DNA of 64,000 nt from a virus (lineage: Duplodnaviria; Caudoviricetes): the IMG/VR virus record IMGVR_UViG_3300025986_000001, positions 32,001 to 96,000 of that record; one strand, given 5' to 3'. Positions 2,110-54,346 of this stretch are shown piece by piece. Numbering within the stretch: position 1 is the stretch's first letter; every line of letters starts with the position of its first letter. The notes beneath the pieces were generated by a model. That model did no database searches. It had not been told where the DNA came from and worked only from the letters and a program-made list of their open reading frames with translations. The translations under genes and the position numbers were made by a program.

Positions 2110-2513
2110 TTCCGTTGCCACGCGTACTTCTCCTCGTGGTCGTCGTAGGCGACCGGAACCCACAGGAACGAACGTTTCCGCAGGTCAGGCCAGTCGTCGG
2201 GGATGTAGGGGGTACGGCCACCGGTGATCTGCTCATCCTGCTGCGCAGGTAGCGGAGTGACTAGCAGCGCGTGGTCGTCGATGTCGGTGCGGCGGATCCG
2301 GTAGGCCCGGATCAGCCAGTCGAAGGTCCTGGCCAGGCGGGCCGAGGTGGGCCGAGAGAACTCCCCGCCGCGCAGATCCAGGTGCATCAGCGCGGGGGTG
2401 ATGGTGCTCGGTGTCACGTTCGGGGCTGTCAGCGGCGCCCCGTCGATGCGGGCCAGCTGCACCAGATACGGCAGCGGCCGGTCCTCGTCGTATAGATGGT
2501 TTTCTCGGCGCAT
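2106..2513 (-). CDS. Hypothetical protein
   Basis: GAGGAG RBS before MRRENHLY. Confidence 0.65.
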   Translation of the reverse strand: MRRENHLYDEDRPLPYLVQLARIDGAPLTAPNVTPSTITPALMHLDLRGGEFSRPTSARLARTFDWLIRAYRIRRTDIDDHALLVTPLPAQQDEQITGGRTPYIPDDWPDLRKRSFLWVPVAYDDHEEKYAWQRK

Positions 2514-2541
2514 CCTTGGCTCTCCTCGACGTTTCCCCAGG

Positions 2542-2847
2542 TCAGGCCGCCTGGGGCAGTTCGGGTGTGCGACGCGTGTGCGTGCGCACATCGGGCAGCT
2601 GGGGCTGCTGTACATCGACGACTACGCCCTCGAGCACCGGGTCGACCACGTAAGTGGAGATGGCCGCGGCGGTGGCCAGAACGGCTACCGCGCCGCCGAG
2701 AACGATCAGGAAGACCGGGCTCATCTGCAGATTCGGGACGTGTTGGGCCTGAAAGTAGAGGCCGGCCAGCGCCGTAAGGACTCCCTGTAGCAGGGCGCCG
2801 TACACAGCGTGACGGACTCGGGTCAGGCGACGGATCAGCGACTTCAT
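2542..2847 (-). CDS. Small membrane protein
   Basis: Two hydrophobic segments, MKSLIRR start. Confidence 0.65.
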   Translation of the reverse strand: MKSLIRRLTRVRHAVYGALLQGVLTALAGLYFQAQHVPNLQMSPVFLIVLGGAVAVLATAAAISTYVVDPVLEGVVVDVQQPQLPDVRTHTRRTPELPQAA

Positions 2848-2936
2848 GGAGTTGTCTCGCAATCTTGGGGTTGTTGCACGGGGTTGTTGCTCTGGAGGGT
2901 GGGACCGGCGGGTCATGACTCCCGCCGGCCGGTGGG

Positions 2937-4256
2937 TCAGTTGGCGACCTGATCCGTCTCGTCGTCTCCGGGACGGATCAGGTTCTGGATACCGGCCTCG
3001 ACGCCGAGACGGCCGGCGTGCGCCTTGCTGATGCCGAGACGCTTACCGATCTCCGCGTAGGAGACGGGAGACGTCCCGGACCGCAGAGACGCGACCTGGT
3101 GCAGGAGACGGGCGTCTCCCGCTCCCGTCTCATTCGTCGTCTCTGCCAGCGGCCCAGGAGACGGGAGCCGGCGAGACGGAGACGGAGACGCGGTCAGTGC
3201 GGCCGTCTCGGAGGAGACGAGGGACGGGACGACGTGCAGGCGCTGCTGCACGCGAGGCGTCTCCGTCTCCAGCAGTTCGGCCTCGACCGTCTCCACTGCC
3301 GGCCAGACCTTCGGCTTGCCGGACATCTTCCAGAGACGACGATCCTCGACCGCCAGAATCGGAGACGAGAGACGGTAGCGGGTGGCGTGCTTGAGCGAGC
3401 ACCAGGTGTCCCACGGGCACAGGATCCAGCTCATCGCCGAAAACTTCGGTGCCCGGGCGTCGACCAGGCCCTTCTCCCGCAGCCGCGCACGGTGCTTGTA
3501 GGCGGCCTGCTTGCCCCAGATCAGCACGCCCATGGTGCTCATCAGGGCCACGATCATCGCTGGTGCCCACTTGGCCACCATGGCGGCGTCCACCTCGACG
3601 GTGTCCGTGCGGGCCAGGTCCTGCGTCAGCTCGAAGATCGAGTGAGAGAGGATGAAAGCCGCGTTGAGCAGGATCAACGCGGCCAGCAGGAGCCGATGGC
3701 CGGCGGTGGAGTCACCCTCGATGCGGGTCTTCTCGTAGAGGGTTGCGGTCTTCCAGATACCGCCCTCGAAGGCCAGGGCCAGGGCCAGGGCGACTCCGTC
3801 GGGCAGGCTCAACGGCTCAGCGACGCCCGACTTGATCGTGAAGATGGCAGACACGACCAGCGGCGCGGCCAGCGGCAGGGCGCCGAAGGTGCGGTTGAAC
3901 CAGACCCCGGCGACTCGCAGCCACATGGGCAACGGGGCGATGACGTCATCGCCGGGTTCCGTCTCCAAACCGCGAGACGAGCTGCGGCGCTTGGTCGCGG
4001 CGGCCTGAGACGCCCGCTCCTGCGTCTCACGCTGCTCCTGCTCTCGGCGGAGACGGACGAGACGCTCCTGCTCGGCGCGCGTCTCGGCGGAGACGACGCG
4101 TGCGCGCCGCCAGGCAGAGAGACGAGACGCCGTCCGTCCCATAGGAGACGGCGTTGCGTCTCCGGGGGACGCCATCGGCGTCTCCGACGAAGCGCTCGGA
4201 GAGACGCCGAGCGTCTCCTCGTCTCCGTCTCGGTCTTGGGTGGGGGCGTTGTTCAT
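2937..4256 (-). CDS. Membrane protein with about 4 TM segments and a C-terminal HTH (DUF2637/Spd-like)
   Basis: Coiled coil, TM block, C-terminal VSYAEIGKRLGISKAHAGRL helix-turn-helix. Confidence 0.75.
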   Translation of the reverse strand: MNNAPTQDRDGDEETLGVSPSASSETPMASPGDATPSPMGRTASRLSAWRRARVVSAETRAEQERLVRLRREQEQRETQERASQAAATKRRSSSRGLETEPGDDVIAPLPMWLRVAGVWFNRTFGALPLAAPLVVSAIFTIKSGVAEPLSLPDGVALALALAFEGGIWKTATLYEKTRIEGDSTAGHRLLLAALILLNAAFILSHSIFELTQDLARTDTVEVDAAMVAKWAPAMIVALMSTMGVLIWGKQAAYKHRARLREKGLVDARAPKFSAMSWILCPWDTWCSLKHATRYRLSSPILAVEDRRLWKMSGKPKVWPAVETVEAELLETETPRVQQRLHVVPSLVSSETAALTASPSPSRRLPSPGPLAETTNETGAGDARLLHQVASLRSGTSPVSYAEIGKRLGISKAHAGRLGVEAGIQNLIRPGDDETDQVAN

Positions 4257-4436
4257 GAGACGACCGTACAACACCGCCGAGAAAGTTTCTAGCAGGAGTC
4301 ACAAATTGCTCAACATTTCTGAGACGATGAGACGGGAGACGACGCCGTCTCATGAGACGGCCGAGGAGACGCCTTGCGTAGCATCACCGATCTACCCCAC
4401 TCGCCCTACCGACTCTGAGACGCCGGAACTCGTCTC
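2955..4436. repeat. Dense GAGACG/CGTCTC hexamer cluster, about 50 copies in both orientations
   Basis: Hand count; absent from the TM-coding part (about 3380-3955). Confidence 0.9.
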
Positions 4437-4444
4437 CTCTACTC

Positions 4445-4511
4445 GCCTGACCCACGGCACACGAAAGCCCCCGGCTACCAACCGGGGGCTTTCGTGTGCC
4501 GTGGGTCAGGC
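4445..4511. terminator. 30-bp perfect inverted repeat, terminator-like
   Basis: gcctgacccacggcacacgaaagcccccgg, 7-nt loop, complement. Confidence 0.8.
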
Positions 4512-5066
4512 AGCGCGGCGGGCGGTCGGCCGCGCCTGGGTCGCCAGCTCGTGGACCCAGTTCCACCATGAGACGCCGGCGAGCACGTCGGGGAGGCTGT
4601 CGTCGTATTCGACCTTGACGCGGTGGCCGGCGTCGTCCATGTGCATGATCACCAGTCGAGCATTGTCGATCATCCACCAGTCGGCGCGCGGCCCGAACGG
4701 GGCCTCCCCCAGGATGTTCAGCGCCGGCCGGGGGAGCGTGACGATCTGCTCGCCGGCGGCACGGTTCCACCGGTCGTTCCACTGCACGAACTTCTGGTAC
4801 TGCGTCGGAGGCTCGTCGACGACGCGGACCCGCTCGACGCGCACCCCGCGGGCGGTGAGCGCACGCACATTGGCGTACCACCGGACCAGCCAGGGCGAGT
4901 CGGTGGCCGGCCGCGGGGTGCCGGCGCAGAAGGCGGCGTACAGCAGGTCTTCTGCGCCGACGGCGTAGCCGGGCTGCTGTTCCCACCGCCAGGCGGTGGC
5001 GGTGGCGGCGGTGATCTGTTCGTCGAGGACGGTGCCGACGTCGTCGTCGGCCAGTTCGTAGCGCAC
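4506..5066 (-). CDS. DUF6879-like protein
   Basis: AWRWEQQPGY, RVRVVDEPPTQYQKF, DWWMID motifs; adjacent to XRE gene. Confidence 0.7.
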   Translation of the reverse strand: MRYELADDDVGTVLDEQITAATATAWRWEQQPGYAVGAEDLLYAAFCAGTPRPATDSPWLVRWYANVRALTARGVRVERVRVVDEPPTQYQKFVQWNDRWNRAAGEQIVTLPRPALNILGEAPFGPRADWWMIDNARLVIMHMDDAGHRVKVEYDDSLPDVLAGVSWWNWVHELATQARPTARRAA

Positions 5067-5083
5067 GATGACCTCCGGTTGGG

Positions 5084-5941
5084 CTAGTGGGGCACGGCGC
5101 GGCGGGCCGCGCCGATCAGTTCTGCGGCCGCGGTCCCGGTGACCGCATCGTTCCAGAGCCTGTCGGTGAGCAGGTGGTACTGGGCGACCCGGTCGTCCTG
5201 CAGTTCTTCGACGTCGCCGACGTGCAGCTCGATGTAGATCCGGTCGTCGACGATTTCGTAGGCATTCGCGGCGAAGGTATCCAGGAAGCGGTCCTGGGGC
5301 AGGATGCCGAGCCGGATGTTGGGAAGATCGATGACCGACTCCAGGCGGCTGAGCTGCCCGCGCATGATCTCAGGACTGAATCGCCAGGTCCGCAGCACCG
5401 CCTCGTCGAGCAGAACCTCGAACTGCCGGTGGGTGTCGTAGACCAGCAGGCCGCTGGACTGGCGTTCGGCCACGGCCGCGGCCAGGTCGATGCGGTACTG
5501 CTCGGTGTCCTGGTCGATGTCGGGGGTCGTGAGCGCGTCCATGTGCCGCAGCATCGCCGCGGAGTATGCCGGGGTCTGCAGGAAGCGCGGGACGAACACC
5601 TTCTCGTAGAAGCGGTAGCGGGTCGCGCTCGCCAGGACCTGGGTGTAGGACTTCTGCTGCTGCACGCGGCCGGAGAGCAGGTCGTCGTGGTAGCTGCGGC
5701 GCAGCGCGCGTGCCTGCTCGAGCATGGCCGTCCACTGCTGCAGAGACCCCGGCGGGGCGTCGACGATGCGCGCCCAGTCCCGCAGGTCGTCCTCGGTGGG
5801 CAGTTGCCGGCCGGTCTCGATCTTGCTGACCTTCGAGGGCGGCCAGCCGGCGTCGGCGGCCAGGCTCTTGCTCAGCATCGCGCCGCGCGCCGCGCGCAGC
5901 CGGTCGCCGAGTGGGTTGGCAGGGTTCGGGGTTGTCGTCAT
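5084..5941 (-). CDS. XRE-family HTH regulator with DUF5753-like domain
   Basis: LAADAGWPPSKVSKIETGRQLP HTH; LLDEAVLR...QLSRL C-terminal domain. Confidence 0.85.
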   Translation of the reverse strand: MTTTPNPANPLGDRLRAARGAMLSKSLAADAGWPPSKVSKIETGRQLPTEDDLRDWARIVDAPPGSLQQWTAMLEQARALRRSYHDDLLSGRVQQQKSYTQVLASATRYRFYEKVFVPRFLQTPAYSAAMLRHMDALTTPDIDQDTEQYRIDLAAAVAERQSSGLLVYDTHRQFEVLLDEAVLRTWRFSPEIMRGQLSRLESVIDLPNIRLGILPQDRFLDTFAANAYEIVDDRIYIELHVGDVEELQDDRVAQYHLLTDRLWNDAVTGTAAAELIGAARRAVPH

Positions 5942-15384: not shown

Positions 15385-15562
15385 GCGAAGGACGATAGCA
15401 GGTCCTACGAGTAGCTCGTAGCGGCTCAAGAAACTCGGCGCGTTGAGCCCGACGTCCGAGCGGCGAATTTCCGCTCGGACAGAAGAGACGAAGTCTCTTA
15501 GGGTTTTGATTTTAAGTTCTTATATAAGTACTTCTTTCTAGTAGGTAGTTGTGGGGATCCGT

Positions 15563-15968
15563 GCGATACCTTCAATCTGACCTGCGGAAACTCCGTGTTT
15601 GCCCAGGTCAGATTGAAGGTATCGCGACAGCACCTTCCGACCCCTCTGGGTAGGTCTCTACGAGGGACCAGACTTGATCACGTTCCGTCGATGCCAACAG
15701 CTGTCTCACCTGCAGAGATAGATCGTTGAGGGGTTCCGCGAAAAATCCTGGAAAACCACGTGATGGCACTTGCCATCCACCTAGTTTCTAAAAAATCTTG
15801 GGATGGCAAGTGCCATCACGTGGTTTTGCGGAATTACCGAACAACCACTGACCTGCGAAGATGTAATAAACGGAAAACCCCAGCGATGGCAATTGCCATC
15901 CAATAGTTTTCCGTTTTGTCCGATTTAACCCAGCTATGGCAAACGCCATGCAGGGGGTTTTCCGTTTA
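15563..15968. promoter_or_regulatory. AT-rich origin/operator-like region with nested inverted repeats
   Basis: 22-bp IR at 15563-15584/15604-15625; 27-bp IR at 15752-15778/15801-15827; four ATGGCAnnYGCCAT palindromes. Confidence 0.6.
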
Positions 15969-16103
15969 TTCGTGCGGACGGGCCGGCTGGCGGAGAAACG
16001 TGATGCAGTCCACACTTCGAGTGCTTATTTCTGGGCAGATGCGAGCGCCGTTCATTGATGTACTGGGCGCAGCGACAACCCCACCTAGACGCTCTTGGAG
16101 TCC

Positions 16104-27560: not shown

Positions 27561-27822
27561 CCGCCACTTGCACCATCACAAGATCTTTCTCGTGATACAG
27601 CAGGAAGGTAGGCCCTTCGACGGGGGACATCACCTCCACTCGGACTCCCCCGGCGTAACTGGCCGGCTTCGCGGGCTCCTCGACCAGGAATGGGTAGCGC
27701 CACAGGCGAATCTCGTCATTCTCGATCCTTCCCCACACCAGCATTCCGTCGATCAGATTCCTTGCCACCACCGCGATCAGCGGCGGTAGCCGATCGCCGG
27801 CCTTCTCGACCTGATCCATCAC
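27556..27822 (-). CDS. Hypothetical protein
   Basis: Stop inside repeat. Confidence 0.6.
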   Translation of the reverse strand: MMDQVEKAGDRLPPLIAVVARNLIDGMLVWGRIENDEIRLWRYPFLVEEPAKPASYAGGVRVEVMSPVEGPTFLLYHEKDLVMVQVAA

Positions 27823-28148
27823 GCCGCCCCATCGATGCGGTAGTAGGCGAACTCCTCGTGCCCGTCCGGGAACGTGACGGTCACCTTCGGGTGCGCGAAG
27901 TAGTTCTCGTCGTACTCGCGGGCACCCTCCACCCGGAAGGTGCAGTCGGCCAGCCTGCCGTTCGGGCCGATCGCCTGAACCTGATCGATCTCGATCTCGA
28001 CCCCGCCGTAGCTGCGCTGCTCCAGCAGCGTGGCCAGGCGGACTACCGTGTCGGTGTCCGGGATGACACGGCCGTCGTAGCGGACCACCATGACCAGTTC
28101 GGTCGGCCCGTCGACCGCCGGGTCGTACTCCCGCGCCGTCGCCTTCAC
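27819..28148 (-). CDS. Hypothetical protein
   Basis: GAGGAG RBS, GTG start. Confidence 0.65.
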   Translation of the reverse strand: MKATAREYDPAVDGPTELVMVVRYDGRVIPDTDTVVRLATLLEQRSYGGVEIEIDQVQAIGPNGRLADCTFRVEGAREYDENYFAHPKVTVTFPDGHEEFAYYRIDGAA

Positions 28149-28160
28149 GATCTCCTCATC

Positions 28161-28227
28161 TCTCCGTACGCCTCGTGCGCCGGTGGCCGGCCGCCGGGCG
28201 AACCCGGCGGCCACCATCACGCTCACG
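28161..28227 (-). ncRNA. Intergenic structured element, copy 7 (UUCG loop)
   Basis: Consensus match. Confidence 0.9.
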
Positions 28228-28506
28228 ACTCGATTCGGGTCTCAGAGCTGCCAGTGGTGACGCTGCTGCGCCACCTGACGGTTGTAGGTCAAGCTTCCCG
28301 GCCGCAGGTAGTCAGCCTGCCGCCGCCTGCGGCCGATGTCTGCACTTCTGCGGGAATCGGCCACCCATATCAGCGGATACACGACCAGAATGTCGCGTAG
28401 CCGCAGCCTCCTGCGCATCCGCACCCTCCCGTTCCGCCCGGATCCGGAGCCCGAGCATGGATGCCGGTCGACCGGCGGCGGCGCATCGAGGACTTACAGG
28501 CGATCA

Positions 28507-28800
28507 TCATCGGTTCAGATACAGCTGCCCGTCCGCGGTGAACTCCCGCTCGTTGGCCAGCGCATCAGCTTCGGCCCGCTCTGGGCTGGTCAGATACGCC
28601 AGCCGGGCACGCCCGCACCCGCGCGCCACGTCGATGGCTGCCAGCACGGCGCTCCGGATGGCGGCGACCGCGGGCAGCAGTACCGGTGCGTCCTCGGTGG
28701 TCTCCGCCTCGACGGAGGTCTGCTTGTGCCACCGGCTGGCGTGCAGCTCCACTTCCGGCGGTAGCTCGTCGCCCAGCCGGTAGGTCCTGCTTTCCATCAT
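28507..28800 (-). CDS. Hypothetical protein
   Basis: MMESRTY start. Confidence 0.6.
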   Translation of the reverse strand: MMESRTYRLGDELPPEVELHASRWHKQTSVEAETTEDAPVLLPAVAAIRSAVLAAIDVARGCGRARLAYLTSPERAEADALANEREFTADGQLYLNR

Positions 28801-28817
28801 GCCCAGCCCCCTTTGTC

Positions 28818-29225
28818 TCACCAGTCGCGGCGGATCCGGATCGTGCAGTTGTCGAGCACCACACCGGCCCAGTCGCCGCGCAGGTCGCCCGCGTAGCGTG
28901 TCCAGTCGACGTAGTCGCCGACGTTGTCCGGCCCGATGCCGTGCTCCTGCTCGGCCTCGTAGCGGACGAACCGCTCGAAGTTGTCCTCGGCCACGAAGGT
29001 CAGACTGTCGTCGCAGCAGTCGAACCCCCGGTTCACATCGGCGACGAACGCGCGCAGCAGGCGCAGCTCCAGTGCCAGGTCGGCCTCCAGGTCACGGCCG
29101 TCGGCCTCGTACTCGTCGCGCCGCTCCAGCAGTTCGTCGATGCGCTCCAGCAGTTCGTCGATCTTCAGACGCCCCGTGTCCTCGTCGGCGTAGCTGTCGA
29201 GGTCGACCGTCGTCGTCATCGGCAT
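28818..29225 (-). CDS. Acidic ArdA-like putative antirestriction/DNA-mimic protein
   Basis: EDNFERFVRYEAEQ...YVDWTRYAGDL resembles the ArdA C-terminal motif. Confidence 0.55.
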   Translation of the reverse strand: MPMTTTVDLDSYADEDTGRLKIDELLERIDELLERRDEYEADGRDLEADLALELRLLRAFVADVNRGFDCCDDSLTFVAEDNFERFVRYEAEQEHGIGPDNVGDYVDWTRYAGDLRGDWAGVVLDNCTIRIRRDW

Positions 29226-29238
29226 GGTCTTGACTCCG

Positions 29239-29308
29239 TTCCCCGTACGCACCGTGCGCCGGTGGCCGGCCGCCGGGGCGAACCCGGCGGCCACCATCAC
29301 ACTCACGG
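29239..29308 (-). ncRNA. Intergenic structured element, copy 8
   Basis: Consensus match. Confidence 0.9.
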
Positions 29309-29311
29309 AAC

Positions 29312-29470
29312 TCAGTACTCCAGCTCGGCCAGCACGGCGCCGTCGGCCAGGATCTGACGGGTGCATTCCTCGCAGGTCACCTTGCTGGTATCCCGGCTGG
29401 ACGGACCAGCCTGGGCGCACCAGTTCCCGTGGTCCTCGGGCCGCTTGAAGTGCACATCGGCTGCGCTCAC
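29312..29470 (-). CDS. 52-aa His/Cys protein, not in ORF track
   Basis: VSAADVHFKR...KVTCEECTRQ; stop abuts repeat. Confidence 0.55.
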   Translation of the reverse strand: MSAADVHFKRPEDHGNWCAQAGPSSRDTSKVTCEECTRQILADGAVLAELEY

Positions 29471-29649
29471 CCGATCGCCACCGCCTCACTCTCGTCGGTG
29501 CCTTCGACGGCGAAGACATACCCGCCGCCGCTGGCGTCACTGTCCGCGCCGTTGATGTTGCCACTTTCGAAGCTGCGCCGGATCTCGTCCAGCGCGCACT
29601 CCAGGTCCAGTATCGTGCGGCCCTCGATCCGTACCCGCATGTTCAGCAT
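29467..29649 (-). CDS. Small hypothetical protein
   Basis: After repeat, AGGAG RBS. Confidence 0.65.
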   Translation of the reverse strand: MLNMRVRIEGRTILDLECALDEIRRSFESGNINGADSDASGGGYVFAVEGTDESEAVAIG

Positions 29650-29662
29650 GATCTTCTCCTGG

Positions 29663-29730
29663 TTCCCAGCGCCTCGTGCGCCGGCGGCAGCTCGCCCGAC
29701 CGTAGCCGGGCAAGCACCGTCGGCGCACGA
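29663..29730 (-). ncRNA. Intergenic structured element, copy 9 (cUACGg loop)
   Basis: tcgtgcgcc/ggcgcacga outer stem. Confidence 0.85.
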
Positions 29731-29731
29731 C

Positions 29732-30124
29732 TCAGGCCCGAACCCAGACCAGGTCGTCGCCGAAGTCGAGTCGGCGGTAGTCCGCCTTCAGGCTGTCCGC
29801 GAACTTGTCCCACTTGACGAACGGAACCAGGAAGTTGATGTCGGCCAGCGCCGCCTCCTCGGCGTATTCACGGGCGTAGTCCTCGAACTGCTCGTCCGGC
29901 ACGATCGTGGCCGTGTCGAAGTCGGCGCCGGTGGCCTGCTCGACCTCGGCGCGGAACGCGATCAGCTCGTCATACTCCTGAACGTCCTCGTCGAACGGTT
30001 CGTCACCGTCCTGCTGGGCTTCCCGGATCGTTTTCTTCAGGTACTCGATCCGCTCGTTGACGTCGGCCGGGAAGATCCCGGTCTGGCCGGTGGTGGTGAA
30101 GTCGTCGGCGGCGATGTACGCCAT
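29732..30124 (-). CDS. Acidic ArdA-like putative antirestriction protein, paralog of 28818..29225
   Basis: DEQFEDYAREYAEE...FVKWDKFADSL. Confidence 0.55.
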   Translation of the reverse strand: MAYIAADDFTTTGQTGIFPADVNERIEYLKKTIREAQQDGDEPFDEDVQEYDELIAFRAEVEQATGADFDTATIVPDEQFEDYAREYAEEAALADINFLVPFVKWDKFADSLKADYRRLDFGDDLVWVRA

Positions 30125-30224
30125 GATGATCTCGCTTTCAGGTGGGGTTGTTGCCCTGCTCAAGGCAACGTATCAGTCAGGTACGACAGCCTGGCACGCC
30201 GGGCTAGACACTATCGGGGCGGGC

Positions 30225-30434
30225 TTAGTTGCTCCAGGCCCGTTCGTAGCCGAACAGCTTGGCAACGCGGTCGGCCTGAGCAACGAGAATCTCGTGGAAC
30301 TGCTCATCGGTCAGGCCGAGTTCCTCGGCAACGCGGCCGTCCTGCTCCGACCAGTAGCCGAGCACGTTGCCCAAGCCGTGCATGAGCATCTCCTGCGCTT
30401 TCTGTTTCGCCTCGACCTTAGCCATCGAGGCCAC
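30225..30434 (-). CDS. Small hypothetical protein
   Basis: In operon. Confidence 0.6.
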   Translation of the reverse strand: MASMAKVEAKQKAQEMLMHGLGNVLGYWSEQDGRVAEELGLTDEQFHEILVAQADRVAKLFGYERAWSN

Positions 30435-30804
30435 CCAGAAGCTCTCGGAGGGCGGCAGTGTTTTCCTGGCACTGGTCGAACAGATCCGGCAGCACCGCAG
30501 TGGCTAGGTAGCGAGCCTCAGTGTCCGGCTCATTCAGACCTGACTCGACCGCCCATAGCTCGGTTGTGGCGTTGCTTTGGTTGTTGCCCACGGTCATCCG
30601 CAGGCCGATGTAACGCCAGTCGCGCGCCTCGAACCCGGCGATGTCCGCCGGCCCGTAGCAGTCGAAATCCCCCGGGACGGTTACGTGGTCGGGCAGCACT
30701 TCCAGGCCGATCGCGACGTTACCCACCTGCGCGGTGAGCACCCGATGCCCGTCGACCACACCCCTGGCCAACTGGCTGAGTGCAGCCCCCAGTTTTTCAT
30801 TCAC
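30418..30804 (-). CDS. Hypothetical protein
   Basis: After repeat, GTG start. Confidence 0.65.
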   Translation of the reverse strand: MNEKLGAALSQLARGVVDGHRVLTAQVGNVAIGLEVLPDHVTVPGDFDCYGPADIAGFEARDWRYIGLRMTVGNNQSNATTELWAVESGLNEPDTEARYLATAVLPDLFDQCQENTAALRELLGGLDG

Positions 30805-30818
30805 GATGATCTCCCTAT

Positions 30819-30885
30819 TCTCCGTGCGCACCGTGCGCCGGTGGCGTCCCGCCGGGCGTACCCGGCGAGCACCATCACGCTCACG
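30819..30885 (-). ncRNA. Intergenic structured element, copy 10 (UACG loop)
   Basis: Consensus match. Confidence 0.9.
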
Positions 30886-31141
30886 ACCTGCGCAGAGGTT
30901 CGATAAGCATCTGTCGCTCGTCGAACGACAGGACGCCGTCGCCGTGGTGCTTCTCCTGCATGTGCTGCACCCACCGGTAAATCAAGGCGTCGTGGGCCTC
31001 GGCCGATCCGTCGCGGCTGCGCTCCAGTTCCTGATGCTCCGAACACAGCAGGATCCAGATGTCCTGTCGGCTGTCGTAGTCCAGACAGCCGATCACATCA
31101 TCGTCCTCGACCTCTTCGGTCGGGTCGTACTCGATACCCAT
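30881..31141 (-). CDS. Hypothetical protein
   Basis: Single-gene unit between repeats. Confidence 0.7.
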   Translation of the reverse strand: MGIEYDPTEEVEDDDVIGCLDYDSRQDIWILLCSEHQELERSRDGSAEAHDALIYRWVQHMQEKHHGDGVLSFDERQMLIEPLRRS

Positions 31142-31151
31142 TGCCTGTCCC

Positions 31152-31221
31152 TCTCCCCGTGCGCACCGTGCGCCGGTGGCGTCCCGCCGGGCGTACCCGG
31201 CGAGCACCATCACGCCCACGG
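31152..31221 (-). ncRNA. Intergenic structured element, copy 11
   Basis: Near-identical to copy 10. Confidence 0.9.
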
Positions 31222-31223
31222 TC

Positions 31224-31520
31224 TCAGTACTGCTCGCCTATCTGCTCCAAGGCGGCCGTCAGCTTCAGCACCAGCCAGTCTCCCTCGACGTCGGCCGGGA
31301 CGACCTGAACCAGCAGCCGTACCGCTTCGCTCAGCTCGTCCCAGCGGGGGATCTGGGTGCTCACACCAGGCCCAGCGCTCCAGATGGCGCGCTTGCCTCG
31401 CAGCACCTGCCACAGGACGGTGTCACCGTCCGATCCGCTGCGGTGACCGTAGCGGATCCCGTCCGCCGTGGGGAATCGTCGCCGGACCAGCGCGGCAAGC
31501 TTGCTTGCCGCCGACATCAT
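31224..31520 (-). CDS. Hypothetical protein
   Basis: Coupled. Confidence 0.6.
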   Translation of the reverse strand: MMSAASKLAALVRRRFPTADGIRYGHRSGSDGDTVLWQVLRGKRAIWSAGPGVSTQIPRWDELSEAVRLLVQVVPADVEGDWLVLKLTAALEQIGEQY

Positions 31521-31969
31521 GCGTTCACCCACTCGCGCTTGCGGCAGAAGTCCCCGCAGTCCTCGTGACCCTGCGGGTCGTCCGGGTTGCAGCCGGCCCC
31601 CCACAGGGCGTGCCGAGTCTGGGCGCGCTCGAAGATTTCCCGCGCCTCGCCGACACTGCCGACCTTGCTGACCGAGACCTGCCCGGTGCTGGCTGTCCAG
31701 ACCAGGTAGTTACCCGCCGGGACGATCACCTCGCGCTCGTCGGCCTCGTCGGTCTGCCCGAGCCCGAAGACCTCGTCGGCGTAGACGATCACCACCGTAA
31801 GGTGGCCCTCGAAGTCGGTGTCACCGCACGAGTCCTCCGTTTGGTCGAGACTCCACGTGTACAGCGCCTCGTCGACGCAGCTGCCGAACTTGCCCAGGTG
31901 CCCCGGGCATTCGTACGGTTGCTCGTCGTCGCCGCGCTGCACGAACCGGCTGTTGCACTTCGGCAACAT
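31517..31969 (-). CDS. Acidic Cys-containing protein
   Basis: After repeat. Confidence 0.7.
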   Translation of the reverse strand: MLPKCNSRFVQRGDDEQPYECPGHLGKFGSCVDEALYTWSLDQTEDSCGDTDFEGHLTVVIVYADEVFGLGQTDEADEREVIVPAGNYLVWTASTGQVSVSKVGSVGEAREIFERAQTRHALWGAGCNPDDPQGHEDCGDFCRKREWVNA

Positions 31970-31982
31970 GATCACTCCTACT

Positions 31983-32050
31983 TCTCCGTACGCACCGTGC
32001 GCCGGTGGCGTGGACGCCGGGCCGATCGGCCCGGCGTCCCACCATCAGCC
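31983..32050 (-). ncRNA. Intergenic structured element, copy 12
   Basis: Consensus match. Confidence 0.85.
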
Positions 32051-32302
32051 CGCGGCGAGCAGGTCCCGCGCGAAGTCGGCGAACTCCTCGAAGTAGCGCT
32101 CCACCTCGACCAGACCCGCATAGTGCCCGTGGTCCCAGGCCAGGCTGTACACCCTGCCCAGCTGCTCGGTCGTCAGACCGTCACCGTAGGTCTCGTACAG
32201 CCACTGTGACCACTGGTCGTAGACGTTCGCCGTACTTACCATCTCACCACCGCCGCGCAGCAGCGCGCTGGCGCGGTCGCTGGTCATCTCCTCGGCGCTC
32301 AC
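32045..32302 (-). CDS. Hypothetical protein
   Basis: VYSLAWDHGHYAG motif; stop inside repeat. Confidence 0.7.
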   Translation of the reverse strand: MSAEEMTSDRASALLRGGGEMVSTANVYDQWSQWLYETYGDGLTTEQLGRVYSLAWDHGHYAGLVEVERYFEEFADFARDLLAAG

Positions 32303-32775
32303 GATGCCCTCCGCTCGTGCTTGCGGCAGCTGCCGTCACAGAACACCGTCTCGCTCATGTGCGCGCCGTCCAGCGACTCATGCCCCTCGCATTCCAGCTC
32401 CTCGGCCGCCCACTCCTCGGCTGCCCGCTCCTGCGCCGCCTCGGCCACCTTCTTGAGCTTGGCGGCGAACTGCCGCCTGGTCATCGGCGAGACGTTGGTG
32501 GTCAGGCCGATGCGCAGCTTGGCCTCCTCCAGCGTGTACGGCCGGTCGACGATCTCGCCCTCCCGCATCTGCTGCATCATCGTGCCGCCGCGTGCCGGTG
32601 CGATCTCGGCGGTCCGGCGGACGAACTCGGCGGCATCGTCCTCGCCGAGGATGCCGCGCATGCCGACATCCATCAGGCTGAAGATGATGCACTGGGTCAC
32701 CCGGTAGCCGTTCGGGTCCTCGCCGAGGATGAAGTCCTTCTCGGCGCACTTGGAGGCGTTCCAGTTCAGACTCAT
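32299..32775 (-). CDS. Hypothetical protein
   Basis: MSLNWNA start after repeat. Confidence 0.7.
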   Translation of the reverse strand: MSLNWNASKCAEKDFILGEDPNGYRVTQCIIFSLMDVGMRGILGEDDAAEFVRRTAEIAPARGGTMMQQMREGEIVDRPYTLEEAKLRIGLTTNVSPMTRRQFAAKLKKVAEAAQERAAEEWAAEELECEGHESLDGAHMSETVFCDGSCRKHERRAS

Positions 32776-41703: not shown

Positions 41704-42027
41704 TCAGACCTGCTCGACGATTACCCCGATCAAGTCCAGGTCCGAGCGGACCAGGGTGTACGCCTCATCCTCGGCGTACCAACCGGCCTCATGCGCGCCA
41801 TCGTGACGCAGGTGCTCGGCGTCACGAGCCTCGATCAACCCGGTGTAGGTGGTGTAAGCGCAGGTGCCGCAAGACAGCGGCACGCGGGTAGTGGCGACCG
41901 CGCGGGGCACCCGGCACTCTTCGTCGGTGTTGCCGTAGCGCAACCGGTCGAAGAGCTCGGCCAGGATGTCAGCGCGCACCGCGCCGGTCGATCCCTTGGC
42001 ATCGGCCAGCAGTCCATCGTTAACCAT
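41704..42027 (-). CDS. Hypothetical protein, C2H2-like motif
   Basis: CGTC...HLRHDGAH. Confidence 0.7.
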   Translation of the reverse strand: MVNDGLLADAKGSTGAVRADILAELFDRLRYGNTDEECRVPRAVATTRVPLSCGTCAYTTYTGLIEARDAEHLRHDGAHEAGWYAEDEAYTLVRSDLDLIGVIVEQV

Positions 42028-42042
42028 GTCGATCCCTGTCTC

Positions 42043-42106
42043 TCTCCGGCCTGTGTGCCGGTGGCCAGCGGCCGGAGCATGCTCCGGCCGGACCATCACA
42101 CCCACA
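42043..42106 (-). ncRNA. Intergenic structured element, copy 33
   Basis: Compensatory ctgtg/cacag. Confidence 0.9.
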
Positions 42107-42112
42107 GCCGTC

Positions 42113-42541
42113 TTACGCGCCCTGCGGCGGGAACGACGGACCGGTGTCGCGCGCCGACCCCACGCCGTTGCGAGACGCGCCGACCGTGCCGTTGACGCGC
42201 CCCACGTCGAACATGTTCGTCCGTGCGATCATGTCGTGCGCCCGTACGGTCATGCCGCGCACAGACTCGCCCCTCCATCGTCCGTCATGAGCGCGCACCT
42301 TCGTAGGCGTTTTCACATGCTTGGACGCGACCCCGCCCGCCGGAAGCGGATCCGCCCAACCGGCGGCATCGACATCCGTGCCCAGCTCGAAATGCGCCCG
42401 GCCGCCGTCGGCGAACGTGACGATCCGTGCCGGTGCCGACCACGTCGATTTGACCGCGGTGAACGTGCCGACTCCGTCGGTTGCCGTAGCGACTGTGCGC
42501 CCGCCGATGACCATGCCTCGGCGGATGGATGCTGCCTTCAT
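42113..42541 (-). CDS. Hypothetical protein
   Basis: AGGAG RBS, MKAASIRR. Confidence 0.65.
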   Translation of the reverse strand: MKAASIRRGMVIGGRTVATATDGVGTFTAVKSTWSAPARIVTFADGGRAHFELGTDVDAAGWADPLPAGGVASKHVKTPTKVRAHDGRWRGESVRGMTVRAHDMIARTNMFDVGRVNGTVGASRNGVGSARDTGPSFPPQGA

Positions 42542-42693
42542 CGAATTTCTCCTGTCCTGCCCAAGACCTAGGCAGAGCGATTGTCCGATCATATGGAGCG
42601 AGGACCGTCTATGACGGGGGTATCGCGATGATCAGACAATCACCCTTGCTCATGCCTTGCTCATACACTGCACCGTTGGGTTACGCATCGACT

Positions 42694-42779
42694 CTTGTCG
42701 TGTCCCCTAGCTATCTGCTAGCGCCGATCCCTGCGGGACCGTTCCGGGGGCGGGAGCCTGAACGCTGCCCCTCGTGCCA
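42694..42779. repeat. About 85-nt repeat, copy A
   Basis: Near-identical to 43023-43108. Confidence 0.9.
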
Positions 42780-43022
42780 CGTCGTGAACCGATGCCCGGA
42801 CCTTGCATCCGGTCGCGTTAATGTGCTGCGTGACGACTCCGGTTGCTGGCCGGGGGATCGTCCGCGAGATGAGCAGCTTAGACACAGAGCCTTGTATGAA
42901 TGCCTGCCCATATAGAGATGCAGCGTCGGGATTCGCACCGTTTCATCGCACGCCGTGACGTTTACGATCATCTACCTCTGCCCGCTCCGCCCGATTGTCC
43001 TGCGCCCACTGCTTGATCATCG

Positions 43023-43108
43023 CTTGTCTGTCCCCTAGCTATCTACTAGCGCCGATCCCGTGCGGGACCGTTCCGGGGGCGGGGACCTGAACGCTGTCCC
43101 TCATGCCA
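43023..43108. repeat. About 85-nt repeat, copy B
   Basis: Near-identical to 42694-42779. Confidence 0.9.
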
Positions 43109-43776
43109 GAAATATCGATGTCAGTTCAGATGGGTCTAGTACTGATCGATAGGAGAGAACGGGATCGCTGATCAGCGATGAACTTTCCGCCTTCTCTCAC
43201 ACGTCCGTACGCTTCACAGCGTTCGGGTGCCTCGGCGGAACCTCCCCCACGTGCAGGGGACACCTCCGCCTTATTCCAGAGCCAGCGCTGTGACCGGTCT
43301 CCCGTGGGATGTACGCCGCAGAGGGGCGCTTTCCTCAACCATCGGGACCGCATCGCCGCCCCGTTCAGATCGGGGACCGCGCTACGTGCTCTTGTGTTGT
43401 CAGGTGAACGGGACCGATTCCGCATCCCCCCGCTGCGCTAGCCGGAGGATGGGATTCCCGCTGCCGCCCTGCCTCGGCGACAGAACAAGTAGGCGCCTCC
43501 GACCCATACCGCGTCAAGTCGGACTAGACATTTTCTGGATTTTTCTTGTTTCCCCTGGTCAGCGACTTGCGCCATCGACACACCCGCTTTCACTTACGGG
43601 TGAACCAATCGGCGTTCAGCGATCATTTTGCCCTATATGGACGGTCATTTTCCGACCCTTTCTAGCACCTTTACCCGATGCCACACGAACCGATAAGCCG
43701 ATGACAAGCGACTAGTTTTTCCGTAATTCGAGAATCCTCGATTTCATCCGGGGAGACGGTTACTGGATCGCAGAGG

Positions 43777-44110
43777 AAGCCCCCTCTATAAGCCCCCTCT
43801 ATATAAGCCCTTCTATATATTACTGTTCTACAATAAATAAGATCAACTATGTATCACATGAATAAATAATAGGAACGCACACGCACGCGTTGCACATCAT
43901 GCGCTACATTGTCAAATCGACATGTCATGAGTGAGCGCAGCATCAATGCGTACTGATCTTAGATATGATTATATGCACATATTCGTGAATAGAATCATGG
44001 AAGAAAATCAGATCGCATATTTAAATAAATCCACATTCGAAAATTGAAGATCGTAGCGTGTGGAGCGATCGAGACCTTTAGGTGGTTGAATTTGAATTCG
44101 CAAATATTGA
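43777..44110. other. AT-rich non-coding island at the transcription divergence point, with three AAGCCCyTCTATA-type repeats
   Basis: Repeats at 43777, 43790, 43805; sharp drop in GC. Confidence 0.7.
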
Positions 44111-44262
44111 CGACCCCTGGGCGGGTACCCCGTGGGGGTGCCCGGCGCCGCCGGGCCGGGGCGTTCTGGTTGTCGCTGTGCCTACGATTTAGGGTACTTG
44201 GGAATTGCCCATACTGGGCACATGGGAGGCTCCCTTAAGGGGCGAAGTGGTATTGTCCACCT

Positions 44263-44466
44263 ATGGCAAAGTCCCGGAAGATGCTGGCTGTCGACGCGCG
44301 GGGGCGCATCACGCTTGGCTCGTTGGCAGGCGATCACGAAATCTTCCTGGCCAACGTGAGCGCCGACAACGTGATCACTCTGACGCCGGCGGAGCTGATC
44401 CCCGTCGTCAAGCCCAGACCGCGCCGGCGGACCAAGTCGATCCCCTCAGTCGAAGGAGATCAGTGA
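44263..44466 (+). CDS. Small AbrB/MazE-like DNA-binding protein
   Basis: VDARGRITLG motif. Confidence 0.55.
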   Translation: MAKSRKMLAVDARGRITLGSLAGDHEIFLANVSADNVITLTPAELIPVVKPRPRRRTKSIPSVEGDQ

Positions 44467-45128
44467 AGTCCGTAGAGGTCGTTCGCAGAACAAAGCCGTG
44501 TGGCTGCGCGTGCGGGTACAAGGTGAGCGGTCCGGGCGCATATCTGCCCGGACACTCGCCGCGGGCGCGTAAGCCAGCCCCGCGTTGCGCCTGCGGGTGC
44601 GGCGAATTCGTCGCGCTTCGCAAGAGCCTCTACCGAAAGGGGCATCGCCCTGTCGACCGAGATCCGCAGGAGTTTTGGACGCGTACGGAAGAGACGGCCT
44701 CCGGATGCCGGGTATGGACGGGGAGAGTGGATGACAAGGGCTACGGGGTAGTGAGCTGGGAAGGCAAGACCTGGGGCGCGCACCGCCTTGCTTGGACGCT
44801 GACCTTCGGCACGGTCTCGGACGGACAGTGGGTGCTGCATCACTGCGACAATCCGCCGTGTGTGAATGCTTCGGGCGGCTGCCTATACCTCGGAGATCAC
44901 GAGCAGAACGTGGCCGACAAGGTCGATCGTGGCCGACAGGTCGATGGTGAGCGTCACGGCCGAGCAAAACTGACCGCAGAGGAGGTTGAGGAGATCAGGC
45001 GCCGGTACATCTTTCCGTCCTGCGAGGGCGCGCATGACAGCAACGCTCGAACGCTGGCCAAGGAGTTTGGAGTCGACCGTAAACAAATCCAGCGGTTGGC
45101 TCGGGGTGAAGCCTGGAAGCGGCCCTAA
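44463..45128 (+). CDS. HNH homing endonuclease with CxCGCG zinc motifs
   Basis: CRVWTG, AHRLAW, VLHHCDNPPCVN, GDHEQNVAD. Confidence 0.9.
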   Translation: MKSVEVVRRTKPCGCACGYKVSGPGAYLPGHSPRARKPAPRCACGCGEFVALRKSLYRKGHRPVDRDPQEFWTRTEETASGCRVWTGRVDDKGYGVVSWEGKTWGAHRLAWTLTFGTVSDGQWVLHHCDNPPCVNASGGCLYLGDHEQNVADKVDRGRQVDGERHGRAKLTAEEVEEIRRRYIFPSCEGAHDSNARTLAKEFGVDRKQIQRLARGEAWKRP

Positions 45129-45185
45129 TATATTCCCCAGGCCGCGCCTCGGCCGCTGAATCATCACAGGAACAAGGAGAAGAAC

Positions 45186-45524
45186 ATGAGCTTTCGCGCC
45201 CGCGCCTTCACCATCGAGGGCTACCTCGACGTCGAAACCAACATCCCCCTCGAGCAACTGGCGGTCGGCGACGTCGTCCTCGGTCTCGCCGACGCCGACG
45301 CTCCCGATGAGCCGCGCACAGTGCACGCGGTCACCGCGGCTCTCGGCCGACACCACGTCCCGACCGAGGATCCGACCCGGATGGAGTCCTTCCTGATCAG
45401 CATCGGCCTCGAGCGGCTGGTCGCCACCGGCCCGGTCGAGGGGATCCTCGTTGATAGCGGGGTCGGCGACCCTGGTCTGTTCGCCCTGGAAATCACATCG
45501 GTCCTGGACCGGGTCATCTTCTGA
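45186..45524 (+). CDS. Hypothetical protein
   Basis: AAGGAG RBS. Confidence 0.7.
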   Translation: MSFRARAFTIEGYLDVETNIPLEQLAVGDVVLGLADADAPDEPRTVHAVTAALGRHHVPTEDPTRMESFLISIGLERLVATGPVEGILVDSGVGDPGLFALEITSVLDRVIF

Positions 45525-45592
45525 CCGTCGCCCGAAGGCCCCGCACCATAAGAAGGCCATCTCGGCCTCCCCGATCAGAGCAGGAGAAACCG

Positions 45593-45787
45593 GTGATCCA
45601 GATCGACTGCACCCATGGCATCTACATGGTGACCAACATCGACTACGACGACGCCGTGAAACTGGCGGCCCAGCCGGGCGCCTGGTTCGACGTCGAGTAC
45701 GAGGTCGCAACCGGCCGCGGAAGGATCACGGAGCGGAAGGCGTTCCCGGCCAGCACCGTAGTAGAGATCAAGAAGACAGGATTCTGA
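45593..45787 (+). CDS. Small hypothetical protein
   Basis: AGGAG RBS. Confidence 0.65.
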   Translation: MIQIDCTHGIYMVTNIDYDDAVKLAAQPGAWFDVEYEVATGRGRITERKAFPASTVVEIKKTGF

Positions 45788-45831
45788 CCGGCTCGCCGCA
45801 GCGAGCATCGAGATACCGGAAGCAGAAAACC

Positions 45832-46071
45832 ATGAAAGATCTGAACGAGAGCCAGCGCGCCCGGCTGGAAGCCGCCGTCGACGAGGTCGACCGGCTGATG
45901 GAGAAGCGCCAGCCGTCGATTCCGGACGAACTTGCCCTGACCGCAGTGATCGACACTTTCGGCATCATAGTGCGCCTGCTGGAGGCCGGTGAGATGATCC
46001 GCATCGAAGTCGTCGCCGAGAACGGCCGAGTGGTGGCCTCGGCCCCGCTCGCGCTCGAACCGGACGCCTGA
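45832..46071 (+). CDS. Hypothetical protein
   Basis: MKDLNESQ. Confidence 0.6.
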   Translation: MKDLNESQRARLEAAVDEVDRLMEKRQPSIPDELALTAVIDTFGIIVRLLEAGEMIRIEVVAENGRVVASAPLALEPDA

Positions 46072-48284: not shown

Positions 48285-48360
48285 TGCGGAGTGGAGCAGC
48301 TCGGAGTGCTCGCTGGGCTCATAACCCAGAGGTCGCGCGGTTCAAATCCCGCCTCCGCCA
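48285..48360 (+). tRNA. Initiator tRNA-fMet (CAT)
   Basis: 1-72 mismatch, three G-C pairs in the anticodon stem. Confidence 0.9.
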
Positions 48361-48361
48361 C

Positions 48362-48400
48362 AAGCAGGGGACCCCACGTCGACGGTGGGGTCCCCTGCTT
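48362..48400 (+). terminator. Intrinsic terminator
   Basis: aagcaggggaccccac / gtggggtcccctgctt. Confidence 0.8.
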
Positions 48401-48529
48401 TCTGTCACACTGAGGCGATGACGGGCATCACGCTAATGCAGTGGATCTGGTACAGCCTTTTCGGACTCTTGTCCGTTGCCGGCGCCGGCGCGCTGGCATT
48501 TCGATCCAACCGCCGCTCGCGCTGAGCTC

Positions 48530-48881
48530 CTAGCTGCCGTCATGCCGCTGCCAGCACTCCAGCAGGGCCACGGCAGCCTGATCATCCTTGCGCAGCAGGG
48601 CCTCGGCGTACTCCACAAGACGTTCGCGCCGGATGTGGTACCAGCCGTCGGAAGGCGATCCCGCCATGACGAGCAGCGCCTCGTCGTCCCACCAGCCGAA
48701 GGCCATCGCACGATCGGAGGATCCGTTCTCGTCGGCCTCGGCATCCAGCTGCCATACCTGCTTGGCGTACTCCACCATGCAGGCGCGAATCGCCGCCGGC
48801 CACGGGGGCGTCAACGATTGACGACCATACAAGGTAAAGATCGTCTCGGTCTCGCGATGCCCGCACGATTGCCTGGCCCAT
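48530..48881 (-). pseudogene. Hypothetical gene apparently split by a frameshift near 48790
   Basis: RBS-led N-terminus (MGQAIV) and the likely C-terminus (ADENGSS...GWWDD) are in different frames. Confidence 0.5.
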
Positions 48882-48898
48882 GTTCTCCTCCTGGTTGA

Positions 48899-49384
48899 TT
48901 ACTTCAACTCGGCACGGATCAGCGCGAGGGCGTGTTCGACCGTAGCCACGAGCGTGTCACACACGGGTGCCCCGTGCCGCTTGGCGACCCAGATCAGGTA
49001 CCGGTTGCGCTCCGGATTCGGGCAATCCGCCGGGCAACCGAGAACGACCTTTCCGGATCGCACATACAGCCCGAACTCGACGTTGGTGGTGAAGCCGGGC
49101 AGCGTGGCAATGTCGCGGGGTATCCAGAATAGAATCGCCCAGGCACGGTCGAGGCCAGCGGTTTCCCAGTCGACCTGGTCGTGATACTCCGCGGCCCGCT
49201 TGCCGCCCCGCGACTCCGGGGTCAGCACGGCGAGTGGCTCCACCCTGGTCCAGGCCGTGGCGATCGTGGCGATAGCTCCGGCACGCCAGGACGGCATTGT
49301 CTCCGCGCGGGGAGTCGGTCCTGCGAGGAACACGGACGGCCCGGCGGGGATGGGCTCGCGAGCCCAGACAACGGTGACGGTCAC
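48899..49384 (-). CDS. Nucleoside 2-deoxyribosyltransferase-like protein
   Basis: VFLAGPTPR, QVDWE, ILFWIPR, GFTTNVEFG. Confidence 0.85.
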   Translation of the reverse strand: MTVTVVWAREPIPAGPSVFLAGPTPRAETMPSWRAGAIATIATAWTRVEPLAVLTPESRGGKRAAEYHDQVDWETAGLDRAWAILFWIPRDIATLPGFTTNVEFGLYVRSGKVVLGCPADCPNPERNRYLIWVAKRHGAPVCDTLVATVEHALALIRAELK

Positions 49385-49743: not shown

Positions 49744-49778
49744 TGGATGACCTTCCTGGGTCGATAACATCCGTTCGG

Positions 49779-53494: not shown

Positions 53495-53496
53495 GA

Positions 53497-53802: not shown

Positions 53803-53804
53803 GA

Positions 53805-54320: not shown

Positions 54321-54346
54321 ACCAAGCCCCGCCTCCGCGGGCATGA
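54321..54346 (+). promoter_or_regulatory. CCAAG-CCCGC-N4/5-GCGGG-CATGA motif; also at 54765, 55124, 58070, 58750
   Basis: Five copies, four directly upstream of plus-strand genes. Confidence 0.7.

Follow-up and report, generated by a model that had tools for sequence, protein, structure and literature searches.

In a 64,000-nucleotide stretch (hereafter the window) of an uncultivated Streptomyces-type tailed-phage genome (IMG/VR virus record IMGVR_UViG_3300025986_000001; Duplodnaviria, Caudoviricetes), a gene for a 439-aa membrane protein (positions 2937-4256, minus strand; GC content at third codon positions 0.84) and the DNA just upstream of it are saturated with a single six-base word, GAGACG. 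The locus has an unusual and well-supported anatomy and would combine two known kinds of system, centromere-like site arrays and membrane tethers of DNA. Our reading, held with somewhat more belief than doubt, is that of a self-contained module: the C-terminal tail of the membrane protein would bind the array in its own gene, tether the phage DNA and probably limit its own expression.

A word array laid into a membrane-protein gene

An earlier inspection of the letters alone (the sequence-only reading) had placed about 50 copies of GAGACG/CGTCTC at 2955-4436, in both orientations and several reading frames, against an expectation of about one copy per 1.5 kb, and had noted that they avoid the transmembrane-coding block. 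All of this holds up on counting. The interval contains 49 exact copies (29 on the plus strand, 20 on the minus strand), one further copy lies at 4570 and 38 occur in the other ~62 kb of the window. The whole genome has 121 copies, 72 of them in the other 129 kb, where the word stays at its expected frequency of ~0.55 per kb (observed/expected 1.17, fourth-order Markov model). The array locus is its sole cluster.

The core of the motif is exactly six bases long; the base that follows it is almost never T, and the base before it is biased towards G. Copies occur in both orientations and with free spacing, neighbours often lying 6-10 bp apart. Between neighbouring copies, a distance of 6-9 bp is preferred for direct pairs, 4 bp for convergent ones (GAGACGTCTC) and 8 or 10 bp for divergent ones; some copies are paired as GAGACGTCTC or CGTCTCATGAGACG. 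No fixed spacing or helical phasing was found among the sites of the array.

These copies follow the domain structure of the encoded protein. A 3′ block at 2955-3374 (23 copies) covers the codons of the end of the juxtamembrane segment, of the disordered linker and of a helix-turn-helix (HTH), and a 5′ block at 3960-4231 (17 copies) those of the disordered N-terminus and a long helix (aa 38-99). Between them, the 585 bp at 3375-3959, which encode the membrane domain and the larger part of the juxtamembrane segment (aa 100-294), contain none. The remaining nine copies occupy the 180 bp of noncoding DNA at 4257-4436.

Selection acts on the DNA here, because the copies in the coding sequence (CDS) exceed the protein-based expectation and nine further copies are noncoding. 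Redrawing synonymous codons from genome codon usage (2000 draws) left 4.1 ± 1.9 copies in the CDS (maximum 11), and permuting the gene's own synonymous codons left 13.0 ± 2.4 (maximum 22), compared with 40 observed. The CDS copies fill five of the six frame/orientation classes (GAG-ACG, xGA-GAC-Gxx, CGT-CTC, xCG-TCT-Cxx and xxC-GTC-TCx) and thereby encode ET, RL, xVS, xSP/xSR and GD/RD. Amino-acid composition alone, which the sequence-only reading had named as the explanation that would undo it, is ruled out as the cause of the enrichment by the two codon tests together with the noncoding copies.

The encoded protein

The protein (P0002) starts at the ATG at 4256 (MNNAPTQ, common to 17 homologs), not at the GTG at 4274; P0001 is the same protein with six extra N-terminal residues. 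In an AlphaFold2 model built on 18 sequences (mean pLDDT 69), a disordered beginning (aa 1-37) is followed by one long charged helix (38-99), membrane helices (111-261), three short conserved juxtamembrane helices (274-311), a disordered linker (322-379) and a three-helix domain (379-423). Four hydrophobic stretches with basic flanks were read from the sequence by eye, and the modelled helices run across aa 111-261. The product is thus predicted to be an integral membrane protein with four membrane helices and with both termini in the cytoplasm.

By profile search and predicted fold, the C-terminal tail looks like a sigma-4/DeoR-like HTH. Its codons lie at 2988-3122 (minus strand; aa 379-423), and the three helices (379-392, 400-407 and 411-423) are modelled at pLDDT 84-91. 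Foldseek matched the tail locally to the DNA-binding domain of Bacillus subtilis DeoR (7bhy_A; probability 0.99, TM 0.73, rmsd 1.8 over 50 columns; whole-chain E-value not significant). The sequence profile of the tail finds the same domain at E 2.4e-4 and region 4 of SigF at E 7e-3, and homolog P0004 gives sub-threshold Pfam HTH matches. A whole-chain Foldseek search with the 439-aa model returned no significant match, the local HTH matches being the only informative ones.

The rest of the protein points towards the SpdB/DUF2637 proteins of mycelial actinomycetes. Its juxtamembrane segment (aa ~253-320; 3297-3500, minus strand) has many invariant residues between R256 and W318 and is the only part that tblastn matched in DUF2637 proteins of BE-cluster phages (residues 259-321, 33% identity to the phage DUF2637 proteins, E 3e-4). 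With hhalign, the profile of the family could be aligned to SpdB from plasmid pIJ101 over its membrane block (probability 84%, E 7.5e-6, 114 columns), and PHROG 10376 matches the window protein at E 4e-8. There was no Pfam match to the window protein at E <= 1 and none to PF10935 (DUF2637) in the whole genome at E <= 10; the BE-cluster and Kromp homologs do pass PF10935, at 28-30 bits. On these weaker links, the protein is treated here as distantly SpdB/DUF2637-like and not as a demonstrated member of the family.

Relatives with the same tail keep the word

A word-indexed search returned 17 full-length homologs (40-67% identity), all from metagenome or Logan assemblies. A full hidden Markov model (HMM) search gave 181 family members, and DNA was compared for eleven. 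No relatives of the window family were found in the viral-contig and genome-contig collections, and tblastn of the window protein against plasmids gave no match.

Six loci whose proteins have the same tail as the window protein (type A; L003-L007 and L019; 43-67% identity) carry 38-58 copies of GAGACG each. They share a three-part layout, with copies in ~200 bp upstream, over the initial ~300 nt of the gene and again beyond nt ~880 as far as its end. The individual sites are far more mobile than this layout: of 103 aligned site positions, 52 occur in just one of the six genes and nine in all of them. Because sites turn over while copy number is kept, density appears to be selected rather than position, the pattern expected for a binding field. 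In a set of 68 family members, the imprint that GAGACG leaves in the protein, the ET dipeptide, goes with the type-A tail with two exceptions, namely P0044, which has a type-C tail and the word GAGACC, and P0039, which was compared at the protein level only.

Upstream of the gene, an AT-richer island of ~45 bp is conserved, and the conserved block reads AGAAAT..GAG.AAATTGTGACT..GCTAGAAA. The island has the look of a promoter: a promoter-like site, TTGAGC-16 nt-TAGAAA, was read by eye from the alignment at 4286-4313 (minus strand). A strict sigma-70 consensus scan found no promoter at the locus. Of the noncoding copies of the word, six crowd together immediately upstream of the promoter-like site, and another directly adjoins the start codon. 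This arrangement is kept, with copies flanking the island and abutting the start codon in all seven aligned loci, and the copy next to the ATG (CGTCTC; CGTCTCATG) is invariant in the seven.

Other tails, other words

If the tail reads the array, homologous genes with other tails might carry other saturating words. The sequence-only reading had proposed looking for such pairs, and they were found (CGGGACG, SAGACC, CGTGACA, CGGACAC and others). L021, with a type-B tail, has 52 copies of the hexamer CGGGAC, 38 of them in the form of the heptamer CGGGACG; L020, with a type-C tail, has 29 copies of SAGACC; and L008-L010 have weaker fields of GCRGGAC, CGGGACG or CGGAACA. Homology between the three tail types (A, B and C) was not detectable by hhalign. 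The type-B tail gives a confident model with no significant match in the PDB, the best, non-significant row being the partition protein TubR (E 0.88).

The same design extends to a separate lineage, the DUF2637 proteins of cultured Streptomyces phages, for which 102 records were collected. Their architecture comprises a membrane block, a juxtamembrane segment, a low-complexity linker and a small helical tail with an invariant T...R, and the linker-and-tail codons of the genes are saturated with a single lineage-specific word. In Karimac, Wofford and Tomas this word is CGTGACA (19-24 copies of the hexamer GTGACA in ~430 bp), in Coruscant AGTGACA, in Peebs RGGACA plus GTGACA, in the 14.8-kb satellite Mulchroom CACGACAG and in Kromp CGGACAC. 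CGGACA is the top hexamer at 16 of 19 Kromp-like loci (10 in Streptomyces genomes and 9 in IMG/VR viral contigs). L040 has CCGGAC, whereas GGACAG or AGGACA words are found at L031, L038 and L039, the last of which scores weakly. The recognition helices of L031 and L038 read RSTVVRT instead of ADTVART, and the word of such Kromp-type variants is AGGACAG. A GAC core is found in GAGACG, CGGGACG, SAGACC, CGTGACA, RGGACA, CACGACAG and CGGACAC (window, L001-L040).

Karimac has exactly two clusters of its word, one in its own gene and one in a ~140-bp stretch 64 kb away. This second CGTGACA cluster lies at 78916-79052 of the genome (L001, NC_048724.1) and is gene-independent; the window genome has no second cluster.

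Some relatives lack such an array. The spdB gene of pIJ101 has no word array, and ten chromosomal DUF2637 genes from three Streptomyces genomes have no comparable one: eight of the ten lack any, and the other two (L041 and L043) have only 9-copy clusters of TGCGCA and CGCCCC. At L041 (G002:C14:60501-63968), the nine TGCGCA copies are concentrated within 600 bp next to a canonical DUF2637 gene, the rest of the locus having none, and may represent a weak array of a chromosomal element. Arrays as a general property of DUF2637/SpdB genes are ruled out by pIJ101 spdB, the chromosomal genes and the phage Circinus, to which we return below. In this sample, they are a feature of phage-borne genes whose products have a specific tail.

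The candidate reader of the array

Only the gene itself recurs in every array-bearing context. Its neighbours differ: most members of the window clade have an XRE regulator and a DUF6879 gene, the BE-cluster phages a Dps-like gene, the satellite a GIY-YIG nuclease gene and Kromp a glycosyltransferase gene. Because the gene is the only constant across these contexts, the protein's own tail is the simplest candidate for the reader of the array. The adjacent XRE regulator (HTH_31/DUF5753) was considered for the same role and rejected, as it is absent from the array-bearing loci L009, L020 and L021 and has essentially the same HTH whether the locus carries GAGACG or CGGGACG.

The sequence-only reading had suggested a centromere- or clt-like loading site embedded in the gene and possibly bound by the protein's own HTH. 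The comparison of homologs favours the centromere-like part of this suggestion, a field of predicted protein-binding sites in the gene with the HTH as its best candidate binder, which would tie the DNA to the membrane. The plasmid frame with a loading site for TraB finds no support: the element is a 131-kb tailed phage, and no match to PF01580 (FtsK/TraB-type translocase) was found in its 130.8-kb genome, a record estimated to be 93% complete. The array word also has 6 bp, not the 8 bp of the TraB recognition sequences of clt, making a clt loading site unlikely.

A model for a self-addressed membrane tether

In the mechanism that we propose, the ~50 GAGACG copies would be docking sites for a single domain, the protein's own HTH, placed in its promoter region and in every coding part that tolerates them. 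The nascent protein would insert into the membrane while its own gene is still near, and its tail would bind the array in cis, since the sites lie in the protein's own gene, next to the nascent chain. Many weak contacts, made through the flexible linker of ~60 residues, could together hold this stretch of phage DNA against the membrane as a multivalent tether. Occupied sites at the promoter would repress initiation and those across the gene would block elongation, such that each genome copy would express the gene until coated and thus make roughly enough protein to coat itself. The tether might serve to position or keep replicating DNA in the mycelium, to support replication at the membrane, to retain or partition DNA in compartments, or to move it in an Spd-like manner. 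All four elements of this scheme, i.e. the tail as reader, membrane tethering, self-regulation and the purpose of the tether, are ones that we infer.

A broader proposal, which we put forward tentatively and with less confidence than the module itself, is that Streptomyces phages, satellites and prophages share a previously undescribed class of self-addressed DNA-anchoring module, an SpdB-like integral membrane protein with an interchangeable tail and dozens of docking sites for this tail in its own codons. Protein, centromere and dosage control would travel as one gene, used to fix, partition or move the replicating genome in the mycelium.

Several observations weigh against a module in which each tail reads the array of its own gene. 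The recognition helix of P0010 (L019) is SRAEADR in place of SKAHAGR and retains just the residues S-K/R-A-x-A-x-R, yet its gene keeps GAGACG. The type-B tail folds confidently without a significant match to a solved DNA-binding fold. All words share the GAC core, yet the tails that go with them have no detectable homology, which could point to a shared reader. The match between tails and words rests on few deep lineages and could be produced by shared ancestry. Phage Circinus (L014, BK cluster; 2501-3430) has the same architecture and a similar tail, with no saturating word detected in its gene or nearby, and the second cluster in Karimac means that confinement to the own gene is not general. 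Finally, the window protein itself falls below the Pfam threshold for DUF2637 (PF10935).

The most serious rival, although an unlikely one, is a membrane-attached replication origin, which would also be compatible with tethering. Here, the array would be an iteron field in the gene of an origin-binding or organiser protein anchored in the membrane, and the AT-richer island would be the unwinding element. Sites do lie on both sides of this conserved ~45-bp island. SPP1 has two origins, which the exactly two clusters of their word in BE-cluster phages recall. Gene and sites moreover travel together even into the 14.8-kb satellite Mulchroom, and its close relative Ando has been reported to be without replication genes (PMC13587820). 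However, the 40-60 irregular 6-bp sites over 1.5 kb are unlike the 4-8 phased iterons of 17-22 bp of such origins, and a promoter is a good alternative interpretation of the island. Genes for a helicase, primase or loader are not found next to it, the family-matched neighbours that were scanned (DUF5753 and DUF6879) having no link to replication, and a more classical palindrome-rich, AT-flanked region is available at 15500-15970. To our knowledge, no initiator is an integral four-helix membrane protein.

Equally improbable in our view is a foreign reader, from phage or host, for which the gene would merely be the carrier, with the array loading, for instance, a silencing regulator, a nucleoid-associated protein or a partition protein. 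Three of the observations above would fit such a reader, namely the GAC core common to words linked to non-homologous tails, the unchanged word of P0010 despite its diverged recognition helix and the type-B tail without a recognisable DNA-binding fold. Yet no other gene accompanies the array across its contexts, the XRE regulator being missing from L009, L020 and L021 and having the same HTH at GAGACG and CGGGACG loci, and a reader supplied by the host would leave unexplained why phages of the same Streptomyces hosts carry different words.

That the sites serve purely as an autoregulatory operator, only shutting off the gene of a toxic membrane protein, is a good deal less probable still. Copies flanking the promoter-like site and covering the start codon in all seven loci would suit an operator, as would arrays in the transcribed region, which would act as roadblocks. 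One or two operators would suffice, however, whereas ~40 sites are kept via rare codons through structured parts of the protein; a membrane anchor would be pointless for a mere repressor, and the second cluster in BE-cluster phages is gene-free. Lastly, a decoy or target of a restriction/modification enzyme, suggested only by the identity of the word (CGTCTC is the type IIS site of Esp3I/BsmBI), is close to refuted: the word is neither avoided nor enriched elsewhere in the genome (observed/expected 1.17), relatives use quite different words in the same place and the array is tied to one gene family.

Comparison with known systems

No description of word arrays in DUF2637 or SpdB-like genes was found in the literature. 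Returning to the proposed self-bound tether, its closest protein counterparts are pIJ101 SpdB and pSVH1 SpdB2 (DUF2637, PF10935), which likewise are four-helix membrane proteins with a cytoplasmic C-terminal part from mobile elements of mycelial actinomycetes. SpdB2 is an oligomeric membrane protein that binds double-stranded DNA, and its actinophage homologs have been suggested to help spread phage DNA (PMC4447253). However, SpdB2 binds DNA non-specifically and works with TraB, whereas the window genome has no TraB/FtsK, and relative to SpdB and SpdB2 the window protein is extended by a long helix at the N-terminus and by a tail with a putatively specific HTH.

A precedent for sites inside the binder's own gene is SpdA2 of pIJ101, which binds two sps palindromes in its own coding sequence (Thoma et al. 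2014, PMC4170104). Synonymous recoding that removed the SpdA2 sites affected segregational stability (PMC4170104). SpdA2 thus resembles what is proposed for the window protein, a DNA binder of a Streptomyces mobile element with specific sites in its own coding sequence. SpdA2 differs in being soluble and in having two palindromes rather than ~50 asymmetric hexamers, and there is no sequence relationship between the two.

The layout of the upstream region recalls plasmid centromeres of the parC/ParR kind, in which short repeats flank the promoter of the binder's own operon; the arrangement around the promoter-like site of the window gene is kept in seven loci. In R1 parC/ParR, TP228 parH/ParG and the pSM19035 omega heptads, many short sites, direct or inverted, flank and overlap the promoter of the binder's own operon, and their occupation both builds a segregation complex and silences that promoter. 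ParR, ParG and omega act as soluble ribbon-helix-helix dimers, partnered by a ParA or ParM motor, on 10-20 contiguous, regularly spaced, noncoding repeats. At the window locus, in contrast, the spacing is irregular, most sites lie in codons and no motor gene was identified among the scanned neighbours.

For the membrane end of the model, B. subtilis Noc with its NBS sites, RacA with ram and p16.7 of phage phi29 are membrane-anchored binders that bring DNA to the membrane, where p16.7 organises phi29 replication. Noc uses an amphipathic helix and ParB-type spreading from ~70 scattered 14-bp sites, and p16.7 has one membrane helix and binds non-specifically. The outcome predicted for the window module, bound DNA at the membrane, would be the same, but in none of these systems are the sites concentrated in the binder's own gene. 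The converse holds for lambda, with ori in O, and for SPP1, with oriL in gene 38, where binding sites lie within the binder's own gene, in the part for an interdomain linker. These origins consist of about four long, phased iterons beside an AT-rich unwinding element, with a soluble initiator and replication partners nearby. The lambda O and SPP1 G38P genes thus have in common with the window gene, as interpreted here, repeated sites within the binder's own coding sequence. The window array differs in being irregular and of mixed orientation, with no adjacent replication genes among the scanned neighbours and with an AT-richer island of only ~45 bp that also reads as a promoter.

If the model is true, the locus shows how far a DNA signal can overlay a coding sequence: there is one site per ~18 bp of permissive codons, rare codons are used and selection at the DNA level dictates much of two protein segments. 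Protein and cis-acting site would be fused into one mobile unit of swappable specificity, and such genes are present in large lytic phages, a 15-kb satellite and prophages. It would also bear on how phage DNA is handled in a multicellular, compartmented host; for Streptomyces, only plasmids are known to spread via Spd proteins, and the module could be a capsid-free counterpart of that spreading. The natural pairs of protein and word (GAGACG, CGGGACG, CGTGACA, CGGACAC and others) provide a testable system of small HTH domains predicted to read 6-7 bp, and cultured relatives (Karimac, Coruscant, Kromp and Mulchroom) are at hand for genetics.

Neighbouring genes and genome context

Directly upstream of the array gene lies a minus-strand gene pair (4506-5941) coding first for an HTH_31 + DUF5753 protein and then for a DUF6879 protein, which is also kept in L003-L008, L010 and L019. 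The combination of HTH_31 and DUF5753 is that of the Streptomyces WhiJ/Scr1-type XRE regulators, an unusual cargo for a lytic-looking phage. At the end of the upstream DUF6879 gene, a long GC-rich hairpin was read from the sequence at 4447-4509 (minus strand); it is probably a terminator isolating the transcription unit of the array gene.

Downstream, a gene set common to all relatives (products of ~100, 130, 85, 170, 283, 426, 175 and 973 aa) is located at 27624-32461 of the genome (L018 13624-18461) and at 466-2615 of the window. Six of its products were scanned (169, 172, 283, 426, 175 and 973 aa) and gave no Pfam or PHROG match; a partner of the membrane protein could be among the products of this set. 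Among the neighbouring genes scanned, no Pfam or PHROG match to a ParA/ParM/TubZ-type NTPase was found either, although the scanned downstream genes of ~170 to 973 aa, which have no assignment, might include a novel motor.

The virus record comprises 130,757 bp at 67.5% GC, with a CheckV completeness estimate of 93%, and the window corresponds to its bases 32001-96000. Thirty tRNA genes lie at 48285-63705 of the window, 29 of them in one minus-strand block (58821-63705) that covers most amino acids, a load typical of ~130-kb Streptomyces phages. The remaining window genes are mostly small and without family assignment. Among cultured phages, its closest kin are ~130-kb Streptomyces phages from the family Stanwilliamsviridae (BE cluster), a relationship seen only at the protein level; no DNA-level match to the locus or to a 20-kb stretch was found in the phage collection. 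Because of its tailed-phage genome, its 30 tRNA genes and its BE-cluster kin at the protein level, the element is a large uncultivated high-GC actinophage and not a plasmid.

Two other regions of the window stand out. At 15500-15970, an AT-rich tract is followed by four palindromes, GATGGCA-N2/3-TGCCATC, nested in two 35-bp inverted repeats, with a separate 29-bp inverted repeat also present and flanking open reading frames that have no Pfam match; the region looks like a classical origin or master operator. At 42000-46000, GC falls to 0.59-0.62 where the genes switch orientation from minus to plus, and this is probably a divergent regulatory region.

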